Origin: Patescibacteria group bacterium
GTDB lineage: Bacteria; Patescibacteriota; Patescibacteriia; SG8-24
NCBI GenBank assembly: GCA_028714475.1
Contig: JAQTNC010000008.1
Coordinates: forward strand, 1-58,483
Direction of reading: 5' to 3'
Length of the DNA: 58,483 nucleotides
The notes below the pieces were generated by a model. It was not told the DNA's origin, ran no database searches, and saw nothing but the letters and a program-made list of their open reading frames with translations. Of the stretch, positions 256-54,961 are shown in pieces. Positions within the stretch are counted from its first letter, which is position 1. The number at the start of each line of letters is the position of its first letter. A program made the translations under genes and the position numbers.

Positions 256-419
256 ATTGTGGACTAAACAGGATATTTATTATATTATGGTTAAATCGAC
301 GGCAACCCCGATTCCCTGCTTCGAACCATTGCCAAAGCCGTTAATATCTGCTAATCTGTCCGGTTCGTGGTCCGGGTGGCCTACTGCCCTCGGACCGGTC
401 AGGATATACTGGGTATATA

Positions 420-524
420 GGAATGCCCTTCGCCCCGGCTCCCGGGCCGGGGCGGCGGCGCAGTATTACATTATGGTGCGCCGACTGCATTTCGCTCAGG
501 GAATAAAAATGTTCTGGCCCGACC
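420..524. repeat. 105-bp GC-rich intergenic repeat, copy 1 (long form of the repeat family)
   Basis: Identical over 105 nt to 881-985. Contains hairpins CCCCGGC-TCCCGG-GCCGGGG and GGCGCA-(16 nt AT-rich)-TGCGCC. Confidence 0.9.
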
Positions 525-5263: not shown

Positions 5264-5278
5264 CGGATGAGATAGGTA

Positions 5279-5356
5279 CCCCTTCGCCCCGGCTCCCGGG
5301 CCGGGGCGGCGGCGAAATATTACATTATGGTGCGCCGACTGCTCTCCGCTCAGGGG
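5279..5356. repeat. repeat-family member (long form)
   Basis: CCCCTTCGCCCCGGCTCCCGGGCCGGGGCGGCGGCG-AAATATTACATTATGG-TGCGCCGACTGCTCTCCGCTCAGGGGAT. Confidence 0.85.
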
Positions 5357-5376
5357 ATATTCAATAAGTAACGAGA

Positions 5377-19126: not shown

Positions 19127-19208
19127 CCCCGTACCACTCCCATGTACCACTCCCCTATACCAATCGCTCCGCTCCGGTATAGGGTCGGGTGCATGGTCGG
19201 GTACAGGG
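19127..19208. repeat. repeat-family member (imperfect long palindrome around CGCTCCGCTCCGG)
   Basis: CCCCGTACCACTCCCATGTACCACTCCCCTATACC-AATCGCTCCGCTCC-GGTATAGGGTCGGGTGCATGGTCGGGTACAGGG. Confidence 0.65.
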
Positions 19209-19248
19209 CACGTAAAAAGCCATCGCTACCGCGATGGCTTTTTACGTG
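19209..19248. terminator. 18-bp perfect palindromic hairpin (bidirectional terminator-like)
   Basis: CACGTAAAAAGCCATCGC-TACC-GCGATGGCTTTTTACGTG; same architecture as the hairpin after tRNA-Asp (25480-25517). Confidence 0.6.
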
Positions 19249-19260
19249 GTGGAGATGGGG
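19247..19260 (-). repeat. direct partial copy of the ssrA 3' end (att-like)
   Basis: TGGTGGAGATGGGG is identical to 19429-19442, in the same orientation as ssrA. Confidence 0.7.
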
Positions 19261-19373
19261 AGAGATTTCACGCGACGAAACCGCTGTTGACGCGGTTTCG
19301 TCTTCACGGGCACCTTCGGGTTCCCGTGAACCCTCCTCCAAATGTGGAAAACTACGTTTTCCACCCCTTTCCT

Positions 19374-19401
19374 GTTCGACTCCCCCCTTTCGATTCCACC
19401 A
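19374..19401 (+). repeat. inverted partial copy of the ssrA T-arm/acceptor 3' end
   Basis: GTTCGACTCCCCCCTTTCGATTCCACCA on the plus strand versus GTTCGACTCCCCCCATCTCCACCA at the true ssrA 3' end on the minus strand. Confidence 0.7.
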
Positions 19402-19428
19402 AAAAGACCAACTCGCGGTTGGTCTTTT
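19401..19428 (-). terminator. intrinsic terminator of ssrA
   Basis: Minus strand AGACCAAC-CGCGA-GTTGGTCT followed by TTTTT, immediately after the CCA end. Confidence 0.7.
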
Positions 19429-19822
19429 TGGTGGAGATGGGGGGAGTCGAACCCCCGTCTGGTGAGGCATCTCGCGACACCGCTACGATCATAGCCCGCT
19501 TGAAATTTCGGTCAGCCGATGAGGAACGGGCGAAACCCGGCTGGCCTAACCCCGCTGATTATTCGACCGACGCCACGAGATACTGCGTCGGCTCTGCTTC
19601 ATAAATGGCACCCGGATCCGGCCTATGAAGCGTCAACCGGTCGGATGGGTTCACGCGTTACGCGTAAACCGGAGAAAACGAAGGCGCAAAGGCGTTAGCC
19701 AGAGCGCTCTTCGCCTTGGAAATCAAGTTCGCACTTGTATCCTTGCCCGATGATTAACGAGGTCACGGACATCCTCGGATCGCATGCCGTAAAACGAACT
19801 CCCGTCGATGCCCAGCATCCCC
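19429..19822 (-). ncRNA. ssrA: tmRNA (transfer-messenger RNA)
   Basis: 5' end GGGGATGCTGGGCATCGACGGG and 3' end GACGGGGGTTCGACTCCCCCCATCTCCACCA. Predicted tag ORF GCG AAC TTG ATT TCC AAG GCG AAG AGC GCT CTG GCT TAA encodes ANLISKAKSALA. Adjacent to smpB. Confidence 0.9.
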
Positions 19823-24912: not shown

Positions 24913-25000
24913 GTCTCTTGTCGCGGGCTGACGGCATCTCGGATGAAGCGCCTCCATTGAGGCAAGAAGCCGAGACCGTCGCTCAAAAATTCAGCATTGG

Positions 25001-25066
25001 CGTGGGTCCGTGGTGTAGCCCGGTTAACACGGGCCGCACTGCTGCGGCCAGACCGAGGGTTCGAAT
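25001..25066 (+). pseudogene. truncated tRNA-Asp-like element, copy 1 (no anticodon, no 3' acceptor strand)
   Basis: 66 nt identical to 25311-25376. tRNA-Asp positions 1-26 and variable/T-stem/T-loop are retained, and the anticodon arm is replaced by GGCCGCA-CTGC-TGCGGCC. Confidence 0.8.
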
Positions 25067-25070
25067 CCAT

Positions 25071-25328
25071 ATGGTCACCGTCCTATACATCCTAAAAAAT
25101 ACAAAAGGCAGCTATTACGTCGGGGTCACCGAGGACATCCAGCGCAGGCTGTCCGAGCATAATGTTGGGAAAAGTCTTGCCACGAGAGGAAGAGGACCGT
25201 GGGACCTGGTCTACACGGAAACCTTCCCCTCGCCGCAAGAAGCGAAGAGGCGGGAATATCAGATTAAGCAAAAGAAACGGAAGTCGTATATCGAGTGGTT
25301 GCTGAAGAATCGTGGGTCCGTGGTGTAG
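25071..25328 (+). CDS. small stand-alone GIY-YIG nuclease family protein
   Basis: Frame of 24918..25328 trimmed to ATG 25071. LYILKNTKGSYYVGVTEDIQRRLSEHN...REYQIKQ. The stop codon lies inside repeat copy 2. Confidence 0.85.
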   Translation: MVTVLYILKNTKGSYYVGVTEDIQRRLSEHNVGKSLATRGRGPWDLVYTETFPSPQEAKRREYQIKQKKRKSYIEWLLKNRGSVV

Positions 25329-25376
25329 CCCGGTTAACACGGGCCGCACTGCTGCGGCCAGACCGAGGGTTCGAAT
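25311..25376 (+). pseudogene. truncated tRNA-Asp-like element, copy 2
   Basis: Identical to 25001-25066; diverges after GGTTCGAAT. Confidence 0.8.
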
Positions 25377-25404
25377 GCACGACACGATTCGCTAAGCATG
25401 GCGT

Positions 25405-25482
25405 GGGTCCGTGGTGTAGCCCGGTTAACACGTCTCCCTGTCACGGAGAAGACCGAGGGTTCGAATCCCTTCGGACCCGCCA
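25405..25482 (+). tRNA. tRNA-Asp (anticodon GTC), CCA encoded
   Basis: Manual cloverleaf: acceptor GGGTCCG/CGGACCC, D stem GTGT/ACAC, anticodon arm TCTCC-CTGTCAC-GGAGA, T arm GAGGG-TTCGAAT-CCCTT. Confidence 0.9.
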
Positions 25483-25517
25483 CGTAAAAAACCCAGCTTG
25501 CTGGGTTTTTTACGTGG
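25480..25517 (+). terminator. palindromic terminator hairpin after tRNA-Asp
   Basis: CCACGTAAAAAACCCAGC-TT-GCTGGGTTTTTTACGTGG. Confidence 0.7.
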
Positions 25518-25713
25518 CGCCCCGTGATGAACTGCGAAGCGGTTCATTTTACGGGGCTTTCCCTAAACGAACGCTGGGTTTCACGTGGCGCGGCCACTTA
25601 ATTTTGATACGGCTTGCCCGGTGTTTTTACGTGGCGTCCCGTGTGGCTCGCCGCGCGAGCCGCTTTACGGGACATTCCTTGGACGAACGCCGGTGTTCAC
25701 GTGGCGCAACCAC
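25507..25713 (+). repeat. two 90-nt degenerate direct repeats (25507-25596 and 25624-25713)
   Basis: Shared frame TTTTTACGTGGCGYCCCGTG-[variable hairpin]-TTTACGGGRC...ACGAACGCYGG..TTCACGTGGCGC..CCAC. Confidence 0.7.
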
Positions 25714-52283: not shown

Positions 52284-53687
52284 TCAGCCTTTCCCCAGTT
52301 TCTTCCGAATCTCGTGAGCCGCCTTGTTGAAATCCACAATCTCCTGCATGCCCGATTCCATGTCGCGAATCAACACCGTGCCGTCAAGAACCTCTTTCTG
52401 CCCGATGATGGCCGTGTATCTGGCGCCGAGGCGGTTGGCCGTTTCCAACTGGCTTTTGAGCGCGTTCTTGGAGAAGGTAGCGGTGACCATGATGCCGGCC
52501 GAGCGCAGGTCCTCGAACATCTGGAACGCCTTGCGCCGCGCGTTGTCGCCGAGCTGGGCCACGAAAATGTCCGGACGGAACTCGTCCGGCGGCTCGGTTT
52601 CCTGCGTCTTCATCTGCAGGATGGCGCGCTCGAGGCCAAGACCGAAACCACACGCCGGCGTCGGCCGCCCGCCGAACTGCTCGACCAGGTTGTCGTACCG
52701 ACCGCCGCCGCCGAGCGCCTGCGGGGTCTGACTCTGGTCATCGGCCGGCGTCAGCTCGAAGACAGTGCGCGTGTAGTAATCCAGGCCGCGCACGAGGTGC
52801 GGGTTCAGGACGTACGGCACGCCCATCTCGTCAAGCGACTCGAGCACGCGCATCAGGTGGTTCTTGCATTCGTCATCGAGGAAGTCAACGATGTGCGGAG
52901 CGCCGTCGCGCACGGCCGTGCAATCCGGTTCCTTGCAATCGAGCAGGCGCAGCGGATTCTTGGCATAGCGGCGCTTGCAGTCCTCGCAGATATGCGAGCG
53001 TTTCGGCTTGTAGTAAGCCATCAGTTCCGTCAGGTAGTTCTGCCGGCACTGCTGGCAACCGAGACTGTTGATGTTCACCAGCGTCTTGATGCCGAGTTCC
53101 TTGTAGAAAAGGTACGCGAGCAGGACGACCTCGGCGTCCATGGCCGGATTGCCGTCGCCGAAGACCTCGATGCCAAACTGGTGGTGTTCGCGGTAACGCC
53201 CGGCTTGCGGCCGCTCGTAACGGAACATCGAGCCGACGTAATACAGCTTGATCGGCTGCGGCAGGGTGAACATGCCGTGGTTGATGTAGGCGCGCACGAC
53301 GCCCGGGCTGCCTTCCGGCCGCAGGGAGACGTTGTCGCCGCCCTTGTCGAGGAAGGTGAACATCTCCTTCTCCACCAGATCCGAATACTTGCCGGCCGAA
53401 CGGACGAACAGGCCGGTTTCCTCGAGGAGCGGCGTGTCAATGCGCTCGTAGCCGTAGGCGCGGGTCAGGTTCTCGATGCGCCGCCGCACGAAGTGCCAGT
53501 ATTTCTGTTCGCTCGGCAGGGTGTCGCGCATGCCGCGCAGCAGCTGCGGGGTCGAGCCCGGCTTGGGCGCGGGCGGCACGGCAGGTTTTGGCGCCGCAGC
53601 GGCCTTGGACGCCGGTTTGGCGGCCGGTTTCGACGCCGCTTTTGACGCAGACTTTGATGCCGGCTTCTTCGTATTCTTGGAAGCCAT
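52284..53687 (-). CDS. hisS: histidine--tRNA ligase with a Lys/Ala/Pro-rich N-terminal extension
   Basis: LLRGMRDTLP...MFRYERPQAGRYREHHQFG (class II motifs) and an anticodon-binding C-terminus. The first ~45 aa are KPASKSASKAASKPAAKPASK-type. Confidence 0.95.
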   Translation of the reverse strand: MASKNTKKPASKSASKAASKPAAKPASKAAAAPKPAVPPAPKPGSTPQLLRGMRDTLPSEQKYWHFVRRRIENLTRAYGYERIDTPLLEETGLFVRSAGKYSDLVEKEMFTFLDKGGDNVSLRPEGSPGVVRAYINHGMFTLPQPIKLYYVGSMFRYERPQAGRYREHHQFGIEVFGDGNPAMDAEVVLLAYLFYKELGIKTLVNINSLGCQQCRQNYLTELMAYYKPKRSHICEDCKRRYAKNPLRLLDCKEPDCTAVRDGAPHIVDFLDDECKNHLMRVLESLDEMGVPYVLNPHLVRGLDYYTRTVFELTPADDQSQTPQALGGGGRYDNLVEQFGGRPTPACGFGLGLERAILQMKTQETEPPDEFRPDIFVAQLGDNARRKAFQMFEDLRSAGIMVTATFSKNALKSQLETANRLGARYTAIIGQKEVLDGTVLIRDMESGMQEIVDFNKAAHEIRKKLGKG

Positions 53688-53732: not shown

Positions 53733-54476
53733 TCAAGGGGTGTTGTTGACGCTTGTCTTAACGTTTTCTTGGCTAAAAAAACCCATTTTCTCCGGTGGCC
53801 AGCCGCGGAACCAGACGCGGCCGACGATGAACTCTCGTTTGACCGGCCCGAAGATGCGCGAGTCCATGCTGGCGGCGCGATTGTCGCCCATGAGGAAGAA
53901 CTCGTCGTCCTTGAGCGCCACGTCCTTGTCGCCGGACGTGCGGAGGCCGGCCGCGAGGTACTCGCTTTCGTCGAGAACGTAACCGTCGGGATGAGCCTGG
54001 TCAAAAATCCGCACCCGTCCATCCGAAATCACGACCCGTTCGCTCGGCAAGCCGATGACGCGCTTGATGAAGAACTGGCTCGGGTCGTTCGGGTAACGGA
54101 AAACGACGATGTCGCCACGCTGGGGGTTGTCGAGGCGGTAGCTGATCTCGTCGATGATGAGGTATTCGTGGTCGTAGAAGTTCGGTTCCATCGAGGCGCC
54201 TTTCACGTAGAACGGCTGGATCAGGAAATAGCGGATCGGCACGATGATGGCGAGCGAGATGATCACCACGTGCAAAATCTCCCCGCCGAATTCAAGCGCC
54301 GAAGAGATAAAAGAGCGCCGCGCTACACCCGCGCCGCCGACCAGGACGTCTTTTGCGGTTTCCGATCCGGTTTCCGGCGCTTCGGTTTCAACCTCCGTCG
54401 TCGGATTCGTGTTCTCTTGGTTGTCTTGGTTGTTTTCCATGTTGATGTCCTTAACTCGTCGCATTTCCTTTCTCAA
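53733..54476 (-). CDS. lepB: signal peptidase I
   Basis: VKGASMEPNF...GDIVVF...IKRVIGLPSE...MGDNRAASMDSR. TTG at 54476; alternative ATG starts at 54464 and 54440. Confidence 0.93.
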   Translation of the reverse strand: MRKEMRRVKDINMENNQDNQENTNPTTEVETEAPETGSETAKDVLVGGAGVARRSFISSALEFGGEILHVVIISLAIIVPIRYFLIQPFYVKGASMEPNFYDHEYLIIDEISYRLDNPQRGDIVVFRYPNDPSQFFIKRVIGLPSERVVISDGRVRIFDQAHPDGYVLDESEYLAAGLRTSGDKDVALKDDEFFLMGDNRAASMDSRIFGPVKREFIVGRVWFRGWPPEKMGFFSQENVKTSVNNTP

Positions 54477-54480
54477 TTCT

Positions 54481-54596
54481 CTGGTGGCCGCAGAAGGGTG
54501 AATCGCGAACCGGTGAGCGATTCACGGGCGGCGTAGGCCGCCCGGGGTTCAGCGAGCAATTCAGATTCTTGCGAGCTGAACCGAACCTTCGACCTC
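54481..54596 (-). pseudogene. tRNA-Val 3'-half-like element with three hairpin insertions in the T loop
   Basis: Minus strand GAGGTCGAAGGTTCG-[35+22+26 nt hairpins]-CCCTTCTGCGGCCACCA, preceded by AAATGGTGCGGGG. Confidence 0.7.
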
Positions 54597-54628
54597 CCCG
54601 CACCATTTGTTCATCTGTTTCAATTCAC

Positions 54629-54705
54629 TGGTGGGCGCAGAAGGATTCGAACCTTCGACCTCTGTCGTGTGAGGACAGCGCTCTAACCAGCTGAGCTATG
54701 CGCCC
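54629..54705 (-). tRNA. tRNA-Val (anticodon CAC), CCA encoded
   Basis: Manual cloverleaf: GGGCGCA/TGCGCCC acceptor, GCTC/GAGC D stem, CTGTC-CTCACAC-GACAG anticodon arm, GAAGG-TTCGAAT-CCTTC T arm. Confidence 0.9.
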
Positions 54706-54740
54706 ATTGCGCCCACCAGTGAATTGGGAAATGGTGCGGG

Positions 54741-54768
54741 GCGCTCTAACCAGCTGAGCTATGCGCCC
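54741..54768 (-). pseudogene. tRNA-Val 5'-half copy (acceptor 5' strand plus D arm)
   Basis: GGGCGCATAGCTCAGCTGGTTAGAGCGC is identical to the first 28 nt of the real tRNA and is followed by CCCCGCACCATTT. Confidence 0.75.
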
Positions 54769-54806
54769 ATTGCGCCCACCAGAGAATTTTAAAGATGAAT
54801 TGCGGG

Positions 54807-54894
54807 GCGCTCCCTGTCCTCCGTAGCTTTAGCGAAGGAGGATAACCAGCTGCCACCCTTCGGGTGGTCACCCGCAGGGTGAAGCTATGCGCCC
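54807..54894 (-). pseudogene. tRNA-Val 5'-half copy carrying two 30-nt hairpin insertions
   Basis: GGGCGCATAGCT-[TCACCCTGCGGGTGACCACCCGAAGGGTGG]-CAGCTGGTTA-[TCCTCCTTCGCTAAAGCTACGGAGGACAGG]-GAGCGC. Confidence 0.75.
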
Positions 54895-54933
54895 ATTAAA
54901 ACTGACTCCGCATAAAAACTGCGAAGCATAGGC

Positions 54934-54961
54934 AGTTTAGCACAATTCAACGGTTTGGCAA
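54934..54961 (-). promoter_or_regulatory. weak promoter candidate for the tRNA-Val array/lepB
   Basis: Minus strand TTGCCA, 16-bp spacer, TAAACT. Confidence 0.3.

Follow-up and report, generated by a model that had tools for sequence, protein, structure and literature searches.

The 58,483-nt stretch of a Patescibacteria genome analysed here (contig JAQTNC010000008.1 of assembly GCA_028714475.1; hereafter the window, to whose positions coordinates refer) carries a gene for tRNA-Val(CAC) upstream of lepB, in the company of hisS, an LCP-family gene and der. Read on the minus strand, the tRNA gene is enclosed in pieces of itself: two copies of its 5' half (units A and B) precede it, and a copy of its 3' part (element D) follows it (Table 1). 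ARAGORN and Rfam, which were used for tRNA calls, recognise a sole tRNA in the array, that at 54705-54629. A promoter-like site lies upstream of unit A, and an element resembling it, TGTGCTACAAT, is found upstream of tRNA-Val in L001 and L085 (handles of this form denote loci used for comparison); the whole array and lepB are probably covered by one transcript. The results below suggest that the locus holds, quite probably, one live tRNA-Val(CAC) amid dead partial copies of the same unit, which arose at the DNA level.

Units A and B are parts of a 63-nt tandem repeat, whose copies are 98% identical. Unit A reads GGGCGCATAGCT, a 30-nt insert (54882-54853), CAGCTGGTTA, another 30-nt insert (54842-54813) and GAGCGC, with CCCCGCA (54807-54801) directly 3' of it. 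Between units A and B there is a copy of the tRNA leader, AATTCTCTGGTGGGCGCAAT, and a second leader copy, ahead of the live tRNA-Val, reads CAATTCACTGGTGGGCGCAAT. Element D consists of AGGTCGAAGGTTCGG, an 82-nt insert of three hairpins in the T-loop (54580-54499) and CCCTTCTGCGGCCACCA; it carries the base change C70 to G, and its trailer, GAGAATTG, runs into the TTG start of lepB. The outer copy formed by unit B and element D lacks a single part of the live gene, the anticodon arm. Positions 1-28 are identical in the two, as are the 15 nt that run from the variable region through the 5' strand of the T-stem to the first part of the T-loop; the 16 nt that make up the 3' strands of the T-stem and acceptor stem and the CCA contain one difference. 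Signs of decay in the outer material are the G3.G70 mismatch, the 82-nt T-loop insert and the lack of a 3' partner for unit A. A preliminary description of this DNA, made from the letters alone, had reported a tRNA nested between its own halves, and its pieces and exact complementary stretches lie where it placed them, to within 1 nt. Its 3'-half element is present, with the CCA ending at 54482 rather than 54481, and the three lepB starts it listed (TTG at 54476, ATG at 54464 and 54440) exist as claimed, the last being the one used by the gene call in another assembly.

Table 1. Features of the tRNA-Val(CAC) array, the tRNA-Asp array and related loci. Positions are those of the window unless a locus handle is given.
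Feature	Position	Strand	Remarks
Promoter-like site	54934..54961	-	TTGCCA, 16 nt, TAAACT, with TG ahead of the second hexamer; about 40 nt upstream of unit A
Unit A, dead tRNA-Val 5' half (positions 1-28) with two 30-nt hairpin inserts	54807..54894	-	
Outer stalk 5' strand AATTCTCTGGTGGGCGCA, the leader of unit B	54771..54788	-	Complementary to 54475-54492
Unit B, intact copy of tRNA-Val positions 1-28	54741..54768	-	28/28 identical to the live gene
Palindrome (PAL) 5' arm CCCCGCACCATTT	54729..54741	-	After G26, in the place of the anticodon arm
Inner leader CAATTCACTGGTGGGCGCA (54726-54708) and spacer AT (54707-54706)	54706..54726	-	19-nt leader
Functional tRNA-Val(CAC), CCA encoded	54629..54705	-	ARAGORN; Rfam tRNA, 72.8 bits
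Inner trailer GTGAATTG (inner stalk 3' strand) and 12-nt spacer	54609..54628	-	
PAL 3' arm AAATGGTGCGGGG	54596..54608	-	
Element D, dead tRNA-Val 3' part (positions 44-57 and 61-76)	54482..54595	-	
Outer stalk 3' strand TGCGGCCACCAGAGAATT, ancestral tRNA 3' end and trailer	54475..54492	-	Overlaps lepB TTG at 54476
lepB (signal peptidase I)	53733..54476	-	Conserved downstream neighbour of tRNA-Val
tRNA-Asp array	24997-25520	+	Two partial copies, GIY-YIG open reading frame, real gene
Partial tRNA-Asp copies	24997-25069 and 25313-25376	+	Identical to the real gene at positions 1-28 and 46-64
GIY-YIG open reading frame, 85 aa	25071-25328	+	Pfam E = 6e-18; between the two tRNA-Asp pseudo-copies
Real tRNA-Asp	25405-25482	+	Preceded by both partial copies
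Second-family GIY-YIG genes, 80 aa	L172-L177		After tRNA-Leu, tRNA-Ile (16S-23S spacer), tRNA-Ala, tmRNA
Outward stalk extension	L082		TTTCAATAT / ATATTGAAA
Outward stalk extension	L085		CATTGC / GCAATG, GCAATG taking in the lepB ATG
Outward stalk extension	L096		TTCCTTAT / ATAAAGGAA
Outward stalk extension	L094		GATGATTCCCC / GGGAATCAT

An inverted-repeat search of the array confirmed the exact complements that had been described. Its non-overlapping exact arms measure 19, 13, 13 and 12 nt, and the longest arm of 200 dinucleotide shuffles of the 471-nt region averaged 6.75 nt and reached 11 at most, against the observed 19. The inner leader is complementary to the 3' end and trailer of the live tRNA at 19/19 positions (54621-54639 versus 54708-54726), and a 13-nt core is exactly complementary between 54596-54608 and 54729-54741; the intervening sequence in the region of these palindrome arms is 133 nt (54728-54596), 77 nt of which are tRNA. 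In addition, the leader of unit B (54788-54771) pairs at 17/18 positions (94%) with the 3' end and trailer of element D (54492-54475), and the array therefore comprises two complete units, each running from a leader to a 3' end and trailer, one nested in the other. The outer and inner pairings can be told apart by a double change of CAC/GTG to CTC/GAG. The minimum free energy (MFE) fold of the region, a check that the preliminary description had proposed, scores z = -10.55 and arranges the pieces in the nested order given there; with the inserts removed, the outer sequence takes up a cloverleaf-like fold. One more match, of 7+7 bp, links CCCCGCA-A-TTCATCT at the tail of unit A with AGATGAA..TGCGGGG ahead of element D; it is unused by the MFE fold and is possibly due to chance.

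In the outer tRNA-Val copy the anticodon arm is replaced by a GC palindrome, CCCCGCA..TGCGGGG, and a replacement of the same kind is found at the tRNA-Asp array of the window. Both partial tRNA-Asp copies have their 17-nt anticodon arm swapped exactly for GGCCGCACTGCTGCGGCC, an 18-nt hairpin of the form SSCCGCA-NNNN-TGCGGSS. The GIY-YIG open reading frame (ORF) between them starts directly after the T-loop of copy 1, and its last codons (..GSVV and the stop) double as the beginning of copy 2. Homologues of this ORF lie in the same tRNA-Asp architecture in four other Patescibacteria metagenome-assembled genomes (L161, L162, L164 and L166). The tRNA-Asp loci have two to three partial copies each, and the hairpins at the homologous ones are GGCCGCAGTACTGCGGCC, CCCCGCAGTACTGCGGGG (L164) and GGCCGCAGGATTGCGGCC. 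The outer tRNA-Val of L008 has exactly the L164 18-mer where an anticodon arm would be expected; a hairpin of this type in L099 reads AGCCGCAGTATTGCGGCT, and a longer form, CCCCGCACCA..TGGTGCGGGG, turns up again in L010, L155 and L006. The module is thus present in L008, L164, L155 and L010 as well as in the window, and in pseudo-tRNAs elsewhere it is uninterrupted. The tRNA parts of the pseudo-copies match, in each genome, that genome's own tRNA, and the palindrome and the ORF alone are foreign; in L001, L162 and L166 the tRNA 3' end is duplicated. Judged by sequence, the complementary 'tags' that the preliminary description saw joining the halves form the arms of one palindromic module, found in place of the anticodon arm in pseudo-tRNAs of two isotypes in several genomes. 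Since the module is common to the tRNA-Asp and tRNA-Val pseudo-copies, CCCCGCA...TGCGGGG of the window would be this module split in the middle, the live unit lying in the gap. A viral origin of the palindrome was rejected, the sole match among 2.9 million viral contigs being an unrelated hairpin.

A second GIY-YIG family (117 clusters at E <= 1e-10) is found next to structural RNA genes in another arrangement. At 5/5 sampled loci its gene starts 115-165 nt past the CCA of a tRNA or tmRNA (transfer-messenger RNA) gene on the same strand, the preceding genes being those for tRNA-Leu, tRNA-Ile, tRNA-Ala, tRNA-Val and tmRNA; L028 has a GIY-YIG ORF after tRNA-Val. The leader of this family opens with YYCTTCG directly after the CCA, and such a leader follows 9 of 75 distinct tRNA/tmRNA genes, compared with 0.23 expected. 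Four of the nine (L038, L081, L094 and L120), which were retrieved without reference to the nuclease, are remnants behind tRNA-Val that lack the ORF. The proteins of both GIY-YIG families are stand-alone domains of the UPF0213 type, ~80-85 aa long (PDB 1zg2, 1ywl).

The hairpin inserts of the tRNA-Val array resemble these cassette leaders. Insert 2 of unit A, TCCTCCTTCGCTAAAGCTACGGAGGACAGG, is composed of TCCTCC, TTCGCTAAAGCTAC, GGAGGA and CAGG, and its motif CCTTCGCT..AGCTWCGG..CAGG is common to the leaders of post-CCA GIY-YIG cassettes in L028, L038 and L173; insert 1 (second hairpin) carries the same motif. The counterpart in L028 reads CCACCC TTCGCT..AGCTAC GGGTGG CAGG, that is, the stems differ and the pairing is kept, which is also the case in L173. 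The middle hairpin of element D, CGGGCGGC..GCCGCCCG, aligns weakly with the post-CCA inserts of L094 and L120, an observation that is supportive only, and GTGCGGGG alone is not enriched (3 copies versus 4.7 expected). Hairpin modules recur by tRNA genes and GIY-YIG ORFs in other genomes. Related genomes are polymorphic for the presence of cassettes or inserts, as seen from L028 (with the ORF) versus L038 (with none) and from L081 (with an insert and a pseudo-3' end) versus L082. Every insert seen sits in a dead copy and never in a live gene; in L162 one lies inside the acceptor strand. A dispersed palindromic repeat, similar to miniature inverted-repeat transposable elements or repetitive extragenic palindromes, was rejected as the source, because BLAST of 54440-54960 against the 58-kb window returned no further copy of the hairpin inserts.

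Searches with HisRS and LepB assign the window to Patescibacteria (the candidate phyla radiation), the best relatives having 76% HisRS or 73% LepB identity. The closest ones (L001, L082, L085 and L096, with 76% HisRS or up to 69% LepB identity) have a single tRNA-Val and no upstream 5' halves, which suggests that the array is lineage-specific and recent, and this fits the 28/28 identity of its copies. The preliminary description had named a plain single gene with no conserved flanking helices in relatives as the sign of neutral debris; the plain gene and the absence of half-genes were found, but a conserved flanking helix, described below, is kept. Fragment nests around an intact tRNA-Val do occur in ten relatives (L004, L006, L008, L010, L099, L126, L127, L129, L144 and L155), with breakpoints that vary between the D-loop, position 37/38 of the anticodon loop, the T-arm and the end of the CCA. 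The inner gene sits in the D-loop in L008, L099 and L144, in the palindrome in the window, and at 37/38 in L004, L006, L126 and L155, which have a common CCTGCCCGCCATGG motif. Inner genes in nests are flanked by helices. Fragments of one end only are also found, of the 5' end in L004 and L155 and of the 3' end in L010 and L129. The outer acceptor and T stems contain uncompensated mismatches, G3.G70 in the window and worse ones in L008 and L006, and dead copies hold additional 20-nt palindromes, CCTGCC..GGCAGG. Nests so variable and mismatched have, as far as sequence comparison goes, the pattern of decaying DNA and not of one conserved RNA.

Two further observations concern these nests. L006 (820-1500) and L155 (1030-1280), from two genomes, have an array in common, in which the D-loop sequence GCTGGTTA is joined to CCCCGCACCAAAG..(95-260 nt)..CTTGGTGCGGGG, followed by a 5' half ending in TTCACA joined to CCTGCCCGCCATGGCC and then by the intact tRNA-Val. 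In L010 ARAGORN calls a 93-nt 'tRNA-Pyl(cta)' at 416-508 (minus strand), within an array of tRNA-Val fragments, and this call is probably a false positive from tRNA debris.

Variation within the species of the window also falls on the anticodon arm. A Logan contig from another sample (L168), whose HisRS is identical to that of the window, matches window positions 54390-54686 perfectly (~290 nt) except for the anticodon arm of tRNA-Val. Comparison of L168 1-45 with window 54686-54645 shows that 11 of the 17 nucleotides of the arm differ (TCACA-TTCACAT-TGTGG in L168 versus CTGTC-CTCACAC-GACAG in the window), and that the arm is still paired and the anticodon is still CAC. Element D is identical in this second sample, and same-species Logan assemblies end at the array. 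With the palindrome copy, the strain variant and element D, there are thus three cases of a breakpoint at the borders of the anticodon arm.

The helix around the tRNA has a history of its own. The synteny of tRNA-Val(CAC) and lepB is widespread, and we gathered 62 loci with that tRNA; the ancestral order, shown in relatives, is promoter, leader, tRNA-Val, trailer, lepB. In the clade with tRNA-Val of the GGGCGCAT/GGGCGTAT type the leader has, a few nt before +1, YTCTGGTGGGCG, the complement of the tRNA 3' end CGCCCACCAGAR, and the pairing of this stalk runs outward into sequence that is lineage-specific yet complementary (Table 1). We aligned nine units, with the register set by the tRNA-end motif and, where there were two candidate 3' ends, the pairing partner taken: 83.8% of cells are paired, and both sides have changed in 14/24 pairs. 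Of 500 shuffles none matches the observed score, and slid registers pair 37-45%. In L001, L081, L094 and L120 an insert of 85-120 nt follows the CCA, and the partner of the leader is a second, pseudo-3' end that lies downstream. In L081 this pseudo-3' end has co-varied with the leader (T to C in the leader, A to G in the pseudo-3' end), a change that is impossible for a real CCA end.

The stalk is probably an inherited, RNA-level feature that serves processing or lepB control. The outer stalk of the window is the retained ancestral leader/trailer helix, and its two 'inner' helices are the ancestral stalk duplicated along with the gene. That the leader is able to sequester the acceptor 3' strand and CCA, as the preliminary description had pointed out, is borne out, and the pairing is in addition conserved with covariation in the clade. 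Because this pairing is so conserved and lies right against the lepB start, it plausibly plays a part in processing or in lepB expression, and the earlier suggestion that tRNA-type processing might define the lepB mRNA finds partial support. Leader/trailer processing stalks of rRNA operons are substrates of RNase III. The stalk described here is similar to them in being a helix of 20-24 bp that flanks a mature RNA and whose sequence drifts while its pairing is kept. It differs in that a single tRNA is enclosed, that the 3' strand reaches the lepB start, and that at simple loci the inner part is the tRNA's own acceptor 3' strand and CCA, competing with the acceptor stem.

For the origin of the array we favour the following succession of events. 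The resident unit would have been broken at the borders of the anticodon arm, the arm being turned into the GC palindrome, and a fresh complete unit (leader, tRNA and trailer) would have been placed in the centre of the palindrome. A further duplication of the 63-nt block (leader, 5' half and palindrome arm) would have given rise to units A and B, and the dead copies would have gained hairpin modules from cassette leaders, two of 30 nt in unit A and 82 nt in the T-loop of element D. The agents could be small stand-alone GIY-YIG cassettes, which would colonise tRNA and tmRNA genes of Patescibacteria and cut conserved loop-coding DNA. Repair of the breaks by recombination among repeated tRNA segments would then yield partial, tandem and nested copies, and selection would retain one intact gene. 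The GIY-YIG endonuclease SegB of the T4/T6 tRNA gene clusters recognises the T-loop-coding DNA of tRNA genes (PMC2330249), and its breaks drive recombination-dependent segmental amplification of tRNA genes and truncated copies, also in trans (PMC13096335). The likeness to SegB lies in a GIY-YIG gene among tRNA genes, repeated tRNA segments with truncated copies, and presence/absence polymorphism between relatives. Unlike with SegB, the host here is a cellular Patescibacteria chromosome and not a phage, the proteins are predicted UPF0213-type catalytic domains of ~80-85 aa with no DNA-binding domain, the cassettes either lie right behind the CCA or are joined to a pseudo-tRNA at its T-loop, a conserved palindrome stands in for the anticodon arm of the pseudo-copies, and the Val locus has no ORF. 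The literature searched yielded no account of partial or nested tRNA genes in Patescibacteria, nor of GIY-YIG genes linked to tRNA genes there.

Several points, however, weigh against this explanation. No GIY-YIG ORF or remnant was found at the Val locus of the window or at the ten other nested Val loci, and the link between the nuclease and the Val locus rests on shared short modules (the palindrome and the leader motif). We found no data in the literature on homing or tRNA-gene cleavage by the UPF0213-type family, whose proteins, of ~80 aa, have no DNA-binding domain. The exact swap of a 17-nt arm for an 18-nt palindrome in two unrelated tRNAs is not accounted for by the proposal, and the anticodon-arm swap between strains is known from the end of a single short-read contig. 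Finally, the exact helices that flank the inner tRNA, the insertions mostly at loops and the recurrence of nests would also be expected under constraint at the RNA level. The participation of GIY-YIG cassettes as the cause of the debris would, on balance, have close to an even chance of being right, and the combination of DNA-level debris with such a cause we consider somewhat probable. The 'decayed nested duplication', one of three options in the preliminary description, comes closest to this evidence. A bolder version, which seems doubtful, is that UPF0213-type GIY-YIG genes are unrecognised selfish cassettes homing into Patescibacteria tRNA and tmRNA genes, with the palindrome copy as their adaptive part. 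The anticodon-less palindrome copy may in that case be a cleavage-resistant decoy, a repair template or the hairpin site of the nuclease. The activity of the cassettes may drive segmental duplication, nested 'disrupt-and-replace' tRNA genes and swaps of anticodon arms between strains, and the tRNA-like shells and stalks that are kept may double as processing signals for the downstream mRNA.

Debris of the same kind could in principle form with no nuclease, by slippage and tandem duplication, as scars of integrase-type elements at a tRNA gene, or through unrelated small palindromic repeats. The 98% identity of the 63-nt tandem units and the lack of a nuclease ORF at the locus agree with this. 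Direct repeats of a tRNA 3' end are the classical attachment (att) site signature of tRNA-targeting integrases, and direct repeats of tRNA or tmRNA 3' ends flank short inserts in L001, in L166 and at the window tmRNA (19150-19435). No integrase or other mobile gene, however, lies between or beside the tRNA 3'-part repeats of the array, element D being present as one such repeat, or among its neighbours lepB, hisS, the LCP-family gene and der. Neither slippage nor att duplication is expected to produce duplicated 5' halves, or the exact replacement of the arm by a conserved palindrome common to tRNA-Asp and tRNA-Val, and the hairpin modules are not generic repeats, having no other copy in the 58 kb, yet they recur by tRNA and GIY-YIG genes elsewhere. 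We consider such an origin unlikely. When integrative elements duplicate tRNA or tmRNA 3' ends at att sites, and when mobile elements disrupt archaeal tRNA genes (PMC3293823), partial copies stand on either side of the insert and a functional one is restored, as here, and the 3'-end direct repeats of L001, L166 and the window tmRNA add to the similarity; the differences are the absence of an integrase, the duplicated 5' halves, inserts of tens to hundreds of nt, the nested geometry and the palindrome in place of the arm. Palindromic elements of Rickettsia are, similarly, hairpin-forming insertions in RNA genes. These and the repetitive hairpin elements of mitochondria (PMC2800124) have in common with the inserts described here that short self-complementary modules enter structural-RNA genes. 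The present ones, unlike those, are confined to dead tRNA copies or to the position directly after the CCA, have motifs in common with nuclease-cassette leaders and are not dispersed in the 58-kb window.

Two other explanations place the function of the array in RNA. According to one, the anticodon-less, tRNA-like fold of unit B and element D (acceptor stem, D arm, GC hairpin and T stem) would be a selected processing platform, from which RNase P, RNase Z or RNase III release tRNA-Val and set the 5' end of lepB mRNA. The MFE fold nests exactly as this requires, with the z-score given above, the outer sequence folds cloverleaf-like without its inserts, nested layouts occur in several lineages with helices retained while the sequence changed, and the outer stalk covaries and abuts the lepB start, as does the pseudo-3' end of L081 co-vary with its leader. 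Against it, the closest relatives have no 5' halves, architecture and breakpoints vary by genome, the mismatches in the outer acceptor and T stems are uncompensated (G3.G70 in the window, worse in L008 and L006), some loci have a 5' fragment only (L004, L155) or a 3' one only (L010, L129), no partner exists for unit A, the live tRNA's acceptor stem faces competition from the 19-bp inner helix, and the inner tRNA alone matches Rfam families. A selected platform is, on this evidence, quite improbable. The other explanation, which takes up the comparison with split tRNAs made in the preliminary description, is a split or intron-containing tRNA, whose halves would be joined or spliced as RNA through the complementary tags, with tRNA-Val in the 'intron'. 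As in the split tRNAs of Nanoarchaeum equitans and archaeal bulge-helix-bulge introns, the 5' half is followed and the 3' half preceded by GC-rich complements, and the insert of some relatives lies at the canonical position 37/38 (L004, L126 and L155). The analogy did not hold. All pieces lie on the minus strand within 414 nt behind one promoter-like site, the junction, a perfect 13-bp helix that carries on from the stem, has no 3-nt bulges, the joined product would have no anticodon, an intact gene is present inside, the outer copies are decayed, and the organism is a bacterium, as its tmRNA and lepB show. We know of no tRNA-splicing endonuclease in bacteria. Missing bulges, a missing anticodon and the presence of an intact gene led us to reject a split tRNA or bulge-helix-bulge intron, the likelihood of which is very small. 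A group I intron or other known RNA family in the inserts was likewise rejected: Rfam gave no match in the window region and eight nested loci, and Intron_gpI had none in the window or nested loci even at permissive E-values.

Other parts of the window contain repeats and hairpins around structural RNA genes. The tmRNA gene (19822-19429, minus strand) encodes an unusually long tag peptide of 24 aa (ANLISKAKSALANAFAPSFSPVYA), and its 3' end, CTCCCCATCTCCACCA, is repeated ~170 nt downstream (19150-19435). Between the two copies of the 3' end there are an inverted T-arm copy and several hairpins, a layout that resembles that of tRNA-Val in L001. Near-perfect 40-nt palindromic, terminator-like hairpins are found at 25478-25519, 19395-19435 and 19209-19248. 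Their outer arms take in the last 5-7 nt of the tRNA or tmRNA (CGCCACGTAAAAA..TTTTTACGTGGCG; TCCACCAAAAAGACC..GGTCTTTTTGGTGGA), and the pairing therefore extends past the T-tract; a hairpin of the ACGTAAAAA..TTTTTACGT type also follows tRNA-Val in L084. After tRNA-Asp, units ending in ACGTGGCG are repeated 3-4 times. A dispersed repeat of ~110 nt with the hairpin CGCCCCGGCTCCCGGGCCGGGGCG, starting with GAATGCCCTTCGCC, occurs at 420-530, 880-990, 1000-1080 and 5270-5370, and its opening resembles the GAATGCCCTTCG motif of the GIY-YIG cassette leaders in L176 and L177. A second repeated element ahead of ORFs, CCCCTCGACT..CTCCGCTCGGGGAA, lies at ~540 and ~5590. The N terminus of HisRS is extended by ~45 aa with a high content of Lys, Ala, Pro and Ser (MASKNTKKPASKSASKAASKPAAKPASKAAAAPKPAVPPAPKPG; 53550-53687, minus strand).

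If the link between the nuclease and the tRNA debris is true, minimal GIY-YIG domains of the UPF0213 type would gain a concrete, testable role, as a cellular counterpart of the SegB-driven amplification of tRNA genes in phages. It would also mean that the very small genomes of Patescibacteria tolerate active elements directed at tRNA genes, by which essential RNA genes are reshaped, and it would account for odd tRNA-like fragments that confuse tRNA annotation in the candidate phyla radiation, such as the tRNA-Pyl call in L010. Separately, the conserved leader/trailer stalk of tRNA-Val by lepB is a testable candidate means of controlling or processing an essential secretion gene through a tRNA. 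Naturally nested and broken tRNA genes of bacteria mimic the split and intron-containing genes of archaea without splicing, which bears on the origins of disrupted tRNA genes.

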